DNA from: a virus | Lineage: Duplodnaviria; Heunggongvirae; Uroviricota; Caudoviricetes | Virus record (IMG/VR): IMGVR_UViG_2684622619_000004 | Reading direction: 5' to 3' (one strand) | DNA length: 12,720 bases | Shown here: piece by piece, positions 1-3,000 of the stretch | How the letters are laid out: every line of letters begins with the position of its first letter | Position numbering within the stretch: the first letter of the stretch is position 1 | Made by a program: the position numbers

Positions 1-3000
1 GATGATCTGGCAGCCTGAGTTCACAGATAAAACACTCTCCAGGAAACCCGGGGCGGTTCAGTTTGGATTTACGGTAGCCTGCCGCGTAAAGAGCTACATT
101 TGGAAGACAAGTTGAGCCTTCATATTTTCTGGTCAACGTTGTCAGTGTTATTACTTCTGCTCTCATTGCTGGTTTGCGTTTGCATTGTAAGACCACTCGT
201 GATGGGGTTGGCCTGTGTAGTTTGTCGGAGCTAATCGCCTCCTGACTTTGCAGGTTTGCGCGACGAGCTCTACGGCGAGAAGCTGCGGTGCCTTTAAATT
301 CTGTTTTTCTGGACATAGATTCCTCCCGAATAAACTTTGGCGATGCAATCTCGAAGCTCCTCCTGAGACGGTTGCTTCGGCATTGCATCCCACAGCTTAT
401 GTGGTTGGGTGATCTGGCTTTTCAGCCACGTAGTCGAGAGTCGACGTTGTTTAAAGAGCCTGCCAGTCTGTTCCATTTGGCTTCCAGCGTCCTGCTGATG
501 GTTAAATAGTACGATATGTACTTCACTTGGTCAATACAATTTGTTCTAAAACGGGGCGTTTTTTTACAACGCTTTGTATTTAATAGTATTGTTTTTTAGC
601 GTGGGTGTATTGCCTCGGCGATGTAAGGAGAGATCAGAATTGCGTTGTTTAGTGAGTTGTATCTATTTATTTTCCAATAAATACAATTGGTTATGTGTTT
701 TTTTGGGCGAGAGGAAAAGAAAACCCGGCATGGAGGCCGGGTTGATGATTAGCGGTGTGGCCTTGAGCGATAATGCTCACACACATGTTCAAGATTTCCA
801 TGCCTTATCCGTTCATAGGCATTCACATGAACTTCTCGATCGAATTGGTCATTCAAATTGTATGTAGACATCTGTGTTTTCTCATATTGGCGGCAGCCCT
901 ACAACCGCTTGAAAAAATGTACCAGACGCGCTAAGGTTACATCGCAAATATTGTGTACCTTAACAAGGGCTCCTTTTGGAGGCTCTGGTTAAACAGCATC
1001 AATGTCGGACTGGGGAGTTGGACATTGTGCTGAATGCTTTTGCATTATTGAGGCCGAACGTAAACCTTCAGAATTGAAGAGATGCGTTCGGCTTCTTCGT
1101 TTGTGATATCGTTAGGAATGCCTTTAATCGTTACTGTAACCCCTGATTCAGGTCGAAGAACTACTGGAAGATCATAGGTATGAAGTGCATTAGCCTTGCC
1201 TTCGACTTTTGTTGGTTCGCCAGTCAAATCTTTTTCCTCACTGGATTCTTTGTCAATCGGAGTGTATGGGATTTCTTCACCAGACTGGAAAGCTACAAAC
1301 TTTTTGATTGCACTTTCCATGCGGCTTTTATATGCAGTAATGCTGCTGTCGCTAGGCTTCGGCTCAGTTGCGTTGATGTATCGCTCGGCAAGCTCATTCA
1401 CATCAAGCTGAGTAACATCACCCATTTCCTCTTCTTGGACTACCGTTAAGAGGCGAGCGGATGAGTTTTTTAAATTTCGAGCGGTGGCCTCCTTCATTAT
1501 GTTCAGCGACATAAGCTCTTCAAGGAAGTCCTTGAATGCCTGCACGCTAACGTTTGACTTTGCCATTTGCTCTCTCTCTAAGTTATTGACTCAGATCGAG
1601 TTTATCCAGGAATTGATTTGCATGCAAGACTCAAGTCTTGAGAATTTCCGTTCAAGATCCACTCTCAATAAAAAAGGCCGCACCTCTGCGACCTTTCATC
1701 TCCTAAATCTCTTTTCTCTTACCTAAAGAAACAGCAGGCTGGGTCAGCCCTAACAACTTCAAGTGCATCGGTCAGAGAAAGCTCCGTGCTATACAGGTGT
1801 TATTTCATATCTTTTTGCATCCAATAAATTTTCCATCTGTCCAGAGAGCGGATGCACTTGATTCTTGTTGATGGCAGGACGTTTTTTCACCTGCCTCACC
1901 CTGCCATACAGGACGCTGCTCACCGATATCTATCGTCCGGTCATTGATGTTATAGACAATATCCAGATCATTACGGATATACTCAGATGGCCTTATGCTT
2001 TCAATGAATAGATGAACTTCTTTTTGACCGCTTGATACTCATGGCCATTAAACTCCATCTATCCTCTTTACCCAAACGTCTCTTCAGGCCATTGGCTGGC
2101 GATAACTTTCCCCACAACGGAACAACTCTCATTGCATGGGATCATTGGATATTGCGGGTTTAGTGGTTGTAGAAACACCTGACCGCTATCCCTGATCAGT
2201 TTCTTGAAGGTAAATTCATCACCACCAAGTCTGGCTATGCAGAAATCGCCGGGCTCAACAGCTTGCTCAGGGTCAACCAGAATTAACATCCCGTCAGGAA
2301 AACTAGGTTTGGAACCTGTTGGTGCGGTCATTGAGTTACCTTCAACCTCAAGCCAGAATGCAGAGTCACTGGCTTTTTTGGTTGTGCTTACCAATCTCTC
2401 CGCATCACCTTTGGTAAAGGTTCTGAGTTCTGGAGAGAACATCCCAGCCTGAACATGAGAAAAAACAGGGTACTCATATTGTTTTTTAACTGGGGCCGAT
2501 GAGTATTCGCCAACAGGTGAAAATGTCCCGTCGTGGTTGAATGATATGTTATCAATACCAAGGTATTTAAACACCACACCAATATCACTAAGAGATGGAT
2601 GACGAGATCCGCGCAACCAGTGTCCAATTCCACCCTGCGTCATACCTAGCTCTTCGGCTAACTTCTCTTGAGTTATGCCGAGCTCTTTCATTCTGGATCT
2701 AGCCAGTTCATACCATTTCATTTTCATGTCCTTATTATTACGCTCTGTACTGGAACCATCCATGCACAATGTGTATTTTTACTTGTATTTGAGAAGTACA
2801 TATTGTATTTTTTATTCGTGGTTACTATGGAGGGCATATGAGCAACCTACGAAAATATCGAGAGTCACTGAATATCTCTCAAACAACACTTGCTAAGGCA
2901 GTTGGATGCACACAGGGAGCTATCGGACATTGGGAATCTGGTCGTCGCTTCCCAGACCTTAAAACATGCCGTGCTCTTGTTGCGTGTCTAAACAAGTTAG

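Follow-up and report, generated by a model that had tools for sequence, protein, structure and literature searches.

We report here two RNA elements in a 12,720-nucleotide (nt) stretch of Caudoviricetes DNA (IMG/VR record IMGVR_UViG_2684622619_000004; this whole stretch is referred to as the window), which very probably serve as nutL and nutR in N-dependent processive antitermination of the type known from phage H-19B, working by the mechanism of N binding, Nus factor use and spacing that is proposed below. The proposal builds on what can be read directly, i.e. the position and anatomy of the sites, the covariation of their stems, the family membership of the N protein encoded next to nutL, and the co-variation of the arginine-rich motif (ARM) of N with the loop of boxB. 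Both sites carry an extra stem-loop between boxA and boxB. An initial annotation of this DNA implied that this layout was new; however, the same layout is found at both sites of H-19B (read in AF034975), in which it was described and dissected some 25 years ago. What the window adds is a sister specificity class and natural covariation.

The two sites share a common plan, with boxA, ACAAC, a hairpin, UACG and a boxB of 5 base pairs (bp) with a GAAA loop. nutL (415-459, minus strand) reads GCTCTTTA AACAAC GTCGA-CTC-TCGAC TACG TGGCT-GAAA-AGCCA, and nutR (3065-3109, plus strand) reads GCTCTTTG TAACAAC GGAC-ATTC-GTCC TACG TCGCT-GAAA-AGCGA. Their parts are as follows:

446..459, minus strand: nutL boxA, GCUCUUUA (459-452), with the conserved tail AACAAC (451-446); from sequence and pattern search
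433..445, minus strand: nutL spacer hairpin, GUCGA-CUC-UCGAC, 5 bp with a 3-nt loop; from sequence, folding and comparison
429..432, minus strand: invariant UACG linker from the spacer hairpin to boxB in nutL; from pattern searches, and present in 11/11 nutL sites of loci selected by N
415..428, minus strand: nutL boxB, UGGCU-GAAA-AGCCA, 5-bp stem with a GNRA tetraloop; from sequence, folding and comparison
3065..3079, plus strand: nutR boxA, GCUCUUUG (3065-3072), with the tail UAACAAC (3073-3079); from sequence and pattern search
3080..3091, plus strand: nutR spacer hairpin, GGAC-AUUC-GUCC, 4 bp with a 4-nt loop; from sequence, folding and comparison
3092..3095, plus strand: invariant UACG linker in nutR; from pattern searches
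3096..3109, plus strand: nutR boxB, UCGCU-GAAA-AGCGA, 5-bp stem with a GNRA tetraloop; from sequence and folding

The first G of the nutL spacer hairpin doubles as the last base of the ACAACG motif. The initial annotation had proposed the layout of boxA, hairpin, TACG and GAAA-loop boxB at two sites, and this is borne out by our reading of the sequence and by an exact pattern search, in which a pattern made from the shared parts matched the window twice, i.e. at the two nut sites, versus no match in 200 dinucleotide-preserving shuffles. A third copy of UACG with boxB was not found in the window when up to three mismatches were allowed. The strings written in that annotation have the right content, except that the G shared by CAACG and the start of the hairpin was written twice, making each string 1 nt too long; similarly, its extent of 415-460 for nutL holds for 415-459, while the G at position 460, in front of boxA, lies outside the shared pattern.

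At both sites, a boxA resembling CGCUCUU(U)A lies 5' of boxB and is rrn-like with an extra U (GCUCUUU). Two differences between the sites that had been noticed initially are real: the second pair of the boxB stem is swapped from G-C in nutL to C-G in nutR, and the spacer stems, with 5 bp and a 3-nt loop in nutL and 4 bp and a 4-nt loop in nutR, have no common sequence except the closing G-C, yet both pair. The boxA-boxB spacers are 23 nt long including a hairpin of 12-13 nt; with the hairpin folded out, the linear spacer is 10 nt in nutL (AACAAC+UACG) and 11 nt in nutR (UAACAAC+UACG). With respect to position, nutL lies between the pL promoter and the start of N at 316 and begins ~40 nt into the leftward transcript, and nutR lies between cro and cII and begins 12 nt past the cro stop codon (stop at 3053).

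The comparative evidence for the spacer hairpin comes from two samples. First, in a collection scan, a loose pattern (ACAAYG, 8-20 nt, TACG, NNNCTGANAA) returned true nut sites together with many chance matches; real sites were told from chance matches by spacer stem and boxB pairing, and the chance matches served as an internal negative control. Because this pattern left the spacer interior free and put no constraint on it, the test for pairing in the spacer is a fair one. Second, contigs representing one genome per species were scanned with an alignment of N proteins, giving a sample that is independent of any nut pattern and that comprises Atlantibacter, Enterobacter, Pantoea, Klebsiella and Tatumella. 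A search of viral contigs with a single N returned copies that were 98-100% identical and of no use for covariation. In all 11 usable N-selected loci, ACAACG-hairpin-C-UACG-boxB is present just upstream of N, so that the intervening hairpin is kept in every nutL of this comparison across related phages, and a matching nutR is present in 7 of the 11. No nutR was found within 7 kilobases on the other side in four Klebsiella prophage loci (L210, L211, L212 and L214); the nutL sites of these loci are typical, with a GAUUCA or GAUUCC hairpin, UACG and a UGGCU-GAAA boxB upstream of N.

Across all loci, each of 25 distinct spacers forms an end-anchored stem of 3-6 bp, with a mean stem of 4.96 bp versus 1.68 bp for shuffled interiors (maximum of 2000 shuffles, 2.4). 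When 31 distinct sites are aligned by MAFFT, 94.2% of the cells of the five-pair spacer helix are paired, and changes on both sides are found at four of the five pairs (G-C/A-U/U-A; U-A/C-G/A-U; C-G/G-C/U-A; A-U/C-G). The spacer covariation score is 0.903 versus 0.193 in shuffles; 0/500 shuffles reach 0.903, and controls with slid partners give at most 0.225. Hence, the paired cells, the double changes and the 25 distinct spacers display comparatively what defines the spacer of an H-19B-type site, i.e. pairing and not sequence. Occasional G-U pairs in the spacer stems occur on the transcribed strand only and correspond to A-C mismatches on the other strand, which argues for a symmetry in RNA over one in DNA. 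The search pattern left open the outer three bases of the 3' arm of boxB; nevertheless, the full 5-bp boxB is present in 24/26 distinct matches with a spacer stem versus 0/61 without one. MAFFT put the pentaloop gap at the 3' end, so boxB pairs were not counted on that alignment; the boxB stems seen (UGGCU, UCGCU, AGGCU, CGGCU, UAGCU, GCGCU and UGGCC) are all paired. Altogether, the sequence comparisons argue that the spacer hairpin is real and evolutionarily maintained and that the boxB stems covary too, and the covariation initially proposed from only the two window sites is strongly upheld across relatives.

The second line of evidence is the protein that is expected to act at these sites:

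61..316, minus strand: N antiterminator gene, codons 1-85 (MSRKTEFKGTAASRRRARRANLQ...); Pfam N_peptide PF25694, E = 3.4e-32

N most likely starts at the ATG of 316-314, which is preceded by the Shine-Dalgarno sequence GGGAGGA at 327-321; the GenBank start, an upstream ATG at 388, is probably wrong and lies inside a third hairpin element described below. The window N is identical to N of VT2-Sakai and belongs to the N proteins of the H-19B/933W family, with 57% identity over aligned columns to H-19B N. The window and H-19B proteins share PF25694, the invariant residues M1 R3 T5 F7 G9 R14-16 and the C-terminal CLPNVALYAAGYRKSK. They differ in that the window ARM, MSRKTEFKGTAASRRRARR, lacks R12 and the LKAKALANG segment and is 7 residues shorter (..GTAASRRRARRANLQ..), while the central part of the window N is ~30 residues shorter. 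In H-19B N, the ARM mutations R3H, S11F, R15C/P and R18P abolish antitermination (PMC3526286); in an alignment with H-19B N, R3, R15 and R18 are conserved in the window N.

When the N-terminal 27 residues are compared with the loops of the same locus, ARM type and boxB loop type co-vary without exception. The motif G(N/T)SR(S/A)RRRE(R/L)LK(A/V)KALANG occurs with GACAA loops only (19 loci), and 20 variants of G(S/T)(A/S)(A/S)(S/G/A)RRR..R..Q occur with GAAA or GCAA loops only (>100 loci). Because the window has GAAA loops and GACAA is confined to the LKAKALANG-type ARM, the window sites represent a sister specificity class and not H-19B sites themselves. In mosaic N proteins, e.g. those of loci L110 and L116, a tetraloop-type ARM sits on an H-19B-like body; thus, the RNA-recognition module has seemingly been exchanged together with its boxB. 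The GCAA loop is found at both sites of one Atlantibacter subterraneus prophage (L205; 6878-6891, plus strand, and 5470-5483, minus strand), and one viral contig (L062) has GCAA at nutL and GAAA at nutR. By their sequences, these cases are natural evidence that the loop requirement is for GNRA and not for GAAA specifically.

The resemblance to H-19B extends to the nut sites themselves. H-19B nutR (AF034975) reads ...CACAAUG-GACAUUCGUCC-UACG-UCGCUGACAAAGCGA, and its spacer hairpin with TACG, GGACATTCGTCC+TACG, is base for base the same as in the window nutR. H-19B nutL reads ...AUACAACG-AUUCGAAUAUGAAUC-UACG-GCGCUGACAAAGCGC and has the same architecture with another stem (hairpin GATTCGAATATGAATC+TACG). 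In both phages, the order of elements is boxA or a boxA-like sequence, ACAAYG, stem-loop, C-UACG and a 5-bp boxB closed by U-A, and the pL/pR context and cII are also alike. Thus, the stem-loop between boxA and boxB that marks an H-19B-type site is present at both window sites. Muteeb et al. 2012 (PMC3526286) report two hairpins for H-19B nutR, which were probed with RNase T1, and find spacer and boxB protected by N together with NusA. By contrast, the GACAA pentaloop of H-19B-type sites is present at neither window site: the boxB loop is a 4-nt GNRA loop (GAAA) in the window and the 5-nt GACAA in both nutL and nutR of H-19B, and the window and H-19B nutR boxB differ in this loop only. The stem of the nutL hairpin is GUCGA in the window and GAUUCG in H-19B. 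Finally, boxA is good and rrn-like at both window sites, whereas H-19B nutL has no recognisable boxA (GGUGAAUAU) and H-19B nutR has CGCUAUUUU, which hints that boxA could be more important in the window class than in H-19B. The need for host factors is reportedly reduced in H-19B, with NusB/S10 and boxA being dispensable.

Lambda and the window are alike in the positions of the sites in the pL and pR transcripts, in an identical pL transcript start, in a boxA followed by a boxB whose stem of 5 bp ends in a U-A closing pair and carries a G-purine-rich loop, and in a hairpin and a G/U-rich boxC-like region past nutL. They are unlike in the spacer. In lambda, the spacers, read directly, are linear without a dyad (8 nt, AAAAUUAA, and 9 nt, CACAUUCCA), while the window has in place of this classical unstructured spacer one of 23 nt with a hairpin; accordingly, the initial annotation correctly placed the extra hairpin outside the lambda layout. 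Moreover, the lambda boxB loops are pentaloops (GAAGA and GAAAA) instead of tetraloops, lambda boxA (CGCUCUUA) lacks the extra U that the window boxA has, and the lambda N ARM is unrelated to that of the window N. The nut site of phage P22, at which the gene-24 protein acts, has an rrn-like boxA (UGCUCUUUAACAA) and a boxB (GCGCUGACAAAGCGC) with a pentaloop of the GACAA type as in the H-19B branch, and this N-analogue has a different ARM; the P22 site is not known to have a spacer hairpin. The rrn antitermination signals resemble the window sites in having a boxA with the extra U (GCUCUUUAACAA-like), described in PMC2724277 as an "additional U", and in recruiting Nus factors, and are unlike them in their reversed element order (boxB-boxA-boxC), in the lack of a phage N, and in a boxB that is not the target of an ARM.

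At 386..404 on the minus strand, past nutL boxB, is a third hairpin, CCACA-UAAGC-UGUGG, with GAUG after it. Its relatives read CCAAAG-n5-CUUUGG followed by GAUG or GGUG, and their stems appear, by eye and without statistics, to covary. By position, the counterpart at lambda nutL is CAAAGC-agaag-GCUUUG followed by GGGUGUGUG (boxC).

In the mechanism that we propose, RNA polymerase starting from pL or pR would transcribe the nut site, and the nascent boxB would fold into a 5-bp hairpin with a GNRA tetraloop to be bound by the arginine-rich N terminus of N (MSRKTEFKGTAASRRRARRANLQ). The rrn-like boxA (GCUCUUUA/G) would be open to NusB/S10, and the single-stranded flanks ACAAC and UACG would be open to NusA. 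The resulting complex of N, Nus factors and RNA would remain tethered to the polymerase, which would thereby resist terminators further along, among them the Rho-dependent tR1 region that follows nutR. The spacer stem-loop would serve as a structural "reducer" that folds away 12-13 nt and leaves ~10-11 nt of linear RNA (xACAAC and UACG), so that boxA and boxB would be set about as far apart as in lambda (8-9 nt), with the pairing and not the sequence being what matters. Spacers of 10 and 11 nt after folding out the hairpin are near the 8-9 nt of lambda and, therefore, fit this idea. N binding to boxB, the use of Nus factors and the spacing role are inferred here from homology to H-19B and lambda. 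For H-19B, dyad symmetries have reportedly been described in the nut spacers and are said to be absent from other nut sites; changes in one arm are said to inactivate the site and compensatory changes to restore it, and Neely & Friedman 2000 (Mol Microbiol 38:1074; cited by Muteeb et al.) reportedly named the stem-loop a "reducer" that joins the flanking sites.

Several points weigh against this proposal. Deletion of the dyad is said to have little effect in H-19B, and such a small effect fits poorly with a hairpin that is kept in every relative examined. The "reducer" role itself is one reportedly assigned to the stem-loop of H-19B. Among the searchable papers, no experiment on this particular N/nut pair was found. 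On folding, the spacer hairpin is predicted at both window sites, as the initial annotation had it, but the form with two hairpins is not the fold of minimum energy; instead, boxA is predicted to pair with boxB in a fold that would hide both elements and that still encloses the spacer hairpin. Lastly, at the junction with an insertion sequence (IS) at ~60/61, N is interrupted after codon 85 and has lost the last 5 codons of its intact 90-residue form (QLTAR-stop), with read-through past the junction giving LNRPGFPGECFICELRLPDH... and running off the window; owing to this truncation, the antitermination system may not be fully functional in this particular host. Positions 1-60 of the window are the end of an IS3-family element with 25,070 matching places in 4100/5426 E. 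coli genomes (annotated as IS3 family transposase). The IS/N junction is present in none of the loci fetched and is covered by only 1/5426 complete E. coli genomes (H71, in two joined pieces).

The spacer hairpin could also be a specific recognition element, i.e. a second contact for N, a site for the S1/KH domains of NusA, or a shield against Rho on a rut-like spacer. The Gs of the H-19B nutR spacer show protection by N with NusA/G and, separately, by Rho (PMC3526286), and NusA and Rho are reported to share the H-19B spacer as a binding site (PMC3526286). In addition, the hairpin is kept in 11/11 N-selected nutL sites and in every nutR found, which suggests a selection stronger than would be expected for a dispensable spacer, and neither the closing G-C nor the flanks ACAAY and UACG vary. 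However, the stems are interchangeable (GUCGA, GGAC, GGUGA, GAUUCA, GGCC and GAUUCC) and vary from 3-6 bp, and the loops of 3-6 nt have no conserved base, which is unlike a site for a sequence-specific protein; conservation resides in the single-stranded flanks and not in the hairpin. We, therefore, regard recognition of the hairpin itself as unlikely, while its universal retention, together with a closing G-C and flanks that do not vary, would allow for a role more specific than spacing, involving NusA or competition with Rho.

There is only a very small chance, in our view, that the long-range fold in which boxA is predicted to pair with the boxB loop and 3' arm (GGCUCUUUA and UGAAAAGCC) works as a switch, with boxB staying hidden until NusB/S10 capture boxA, or the reverse. 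This fold is the ViennaRNA minimum-energy structure at both sites (-14.1 versus -11.4 kcal/mol for nutL and -11.9 versus -11.1 kcal/mol for nutR), and the nucleotide ahead of boxA, G in nutL and C in nutR, fits the swapped boxB base as its would-be partner; yet these energy differences lie inside the error of the model, the boxB hairpin is kept in the predicted minimum-energy fold of 34/49 distinct related sites, and the outer pairs are broken in relatives that have U, A or C before boxA or that have no boxA (GGUGAACAU). Moreover, with boxA rich in U and the loop rich in A, such complementarity is trivially expected, and during transcription the local hairpins would be the first to form. Since most relatives lack this fold, we rejected it as a conserved switch.

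Least probable is that the dyads act in DNA as protein-binding palindromes, restriction-type sites (GTCGAC is a SalI site) or a weak antisense terminator: although both arms form perfect DNA palindromes in the window and the antisense strand of the nutL hairpin is flagged by a terminator scan (GTCGAGAGTCGAC then GTTGTTTAAA), we rejected palindrome and terminator since pairing is kept via G-U wobbles of the transcribed strand (H-19B nutL, GAUUCG/UGAAUC; L080, GGGC/GUCC; L056, GGACG/UGUCC), the palindrome sequence is not conserved and so offers no common DNA-binding specificity, the dyad in every case separates boxA from boxB on the sense strand of the early transcripts, and the "T-run" is merely the complement of boxA.

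Returning to the N-dependent system, we consider it possible, if somewhat improbable, that N and boxB of the VT2-Sakai/1717 type form a distinct and uncharacterised specificity class in which the shortened ARM, without R12 and LKAKALANG, recognises a 4-nt GNRA tetraloop. In H-19B/P22 and in lambda, boxB has a pentaloop that mimics GNRA through one flipped-out base. If the suggestion is true, then the class would be orthogonal to the N-boxB pairs of H-19B/P22 and of lambda, and the mosaic N proteins (L110/L116) would show that ARM and boxB were swapped as a unit. Searches that cover the older lambdoid literature poorly turned up no publication about N proteins of this class or about a naturally occurring boxB with a tetraloop, which is weak evidence of absence.

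N/nut antitermination controls early gene expression and, indirectly via Q, Shiga-toxin expression in prophages carrying Shiga toxin (Stx) genes. The natural variation described here backs the idea first set by mutagenesis of H-19B that the spacer stem-loop is an element of structure only. In addition, the clean pairing of ARM and boxB classes, with a GNRA tetraloop or a GACAA pentaloop on a common scaffold, offers a natural system for peptide-RNA specificity, and the tetraloop class could supply an additional orthogonal N-boxB tethering pair. Current understanding is not overturned by these results.

Sequence identity shows the window to be the early region from a Stx prophage of the VT2-Sakai/1717/Nil2 type, i.e. 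of a common Shiga-toxin-type lambdoid kind. Over 61-3700, identity is 100% with Stx2 phage 1717 and 99.9% with phages Nil2 and 2851, and the nutL region is found in 747/5426 complete E. coli genomes. The gene order is as in lambda, with pL-nutL-N on the minus strand and cI-cro-nutR-cII-O on the other side:

506..534, minus strand: pL promoter, TTGACC/17-nt spacer/TACTAT; from promoter scan and sequence
2068-2769, minus strand: cI (S24 peptidase and helix-turn-helix); Pfam
2838..3053, plus strand: cro (HTH_3); Pfam
3195..3491, plus strand: cII, the first gene 3' of nutR; Phage_CII, E = 6e-32
3672-4493: O; Pfam
4490-5866: DnaB-type helicase; Pfam

The pL transcript would start at about position 499 with ATCAGCAGGACGC, as judged from its identity to the start of the lambda pL transcript. 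Nut sites are not annotated in this region in the feature tables of six public records (Nil2, 1717, Stx1-converting phage, phi330, VT2-Sakai and H-19B), and a search of the whole window with Rfam at the gathering threshold gave no nut or boxB family and only matches elsewhere. The latter are the Hfq-binding RNA isrK (9090-9166, plus strand, 74.7 bits) and a C4 antisense RNA (9192-9275, plus strand, 66.7 bits), a pair that corresponds to an immunity/antirepressor module in the c4-icd-ant style of P1/P7 in the nin region, where antA and antB are named in the Nil2 record. Close to nutR, a palindrome, CCGCTTAATAAGCGG (3046-3060), spans the cro stop just before boxA and is flagged on the minus strand by the terminator scan, and a hairpin, AUGCGU-UUCC-ACGCAU (3140-3155, plus strand), lies between nutR and cII and is also present in H-19B, in which this region is the Rho-dependent tR1. 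Between N/pL and cI, at the position of lambda rexAB, an open reading frame of 173 amino acids (1045-1566, minus strand) without a Pfam match is orf22 of VT2-Sakai/Nil2.

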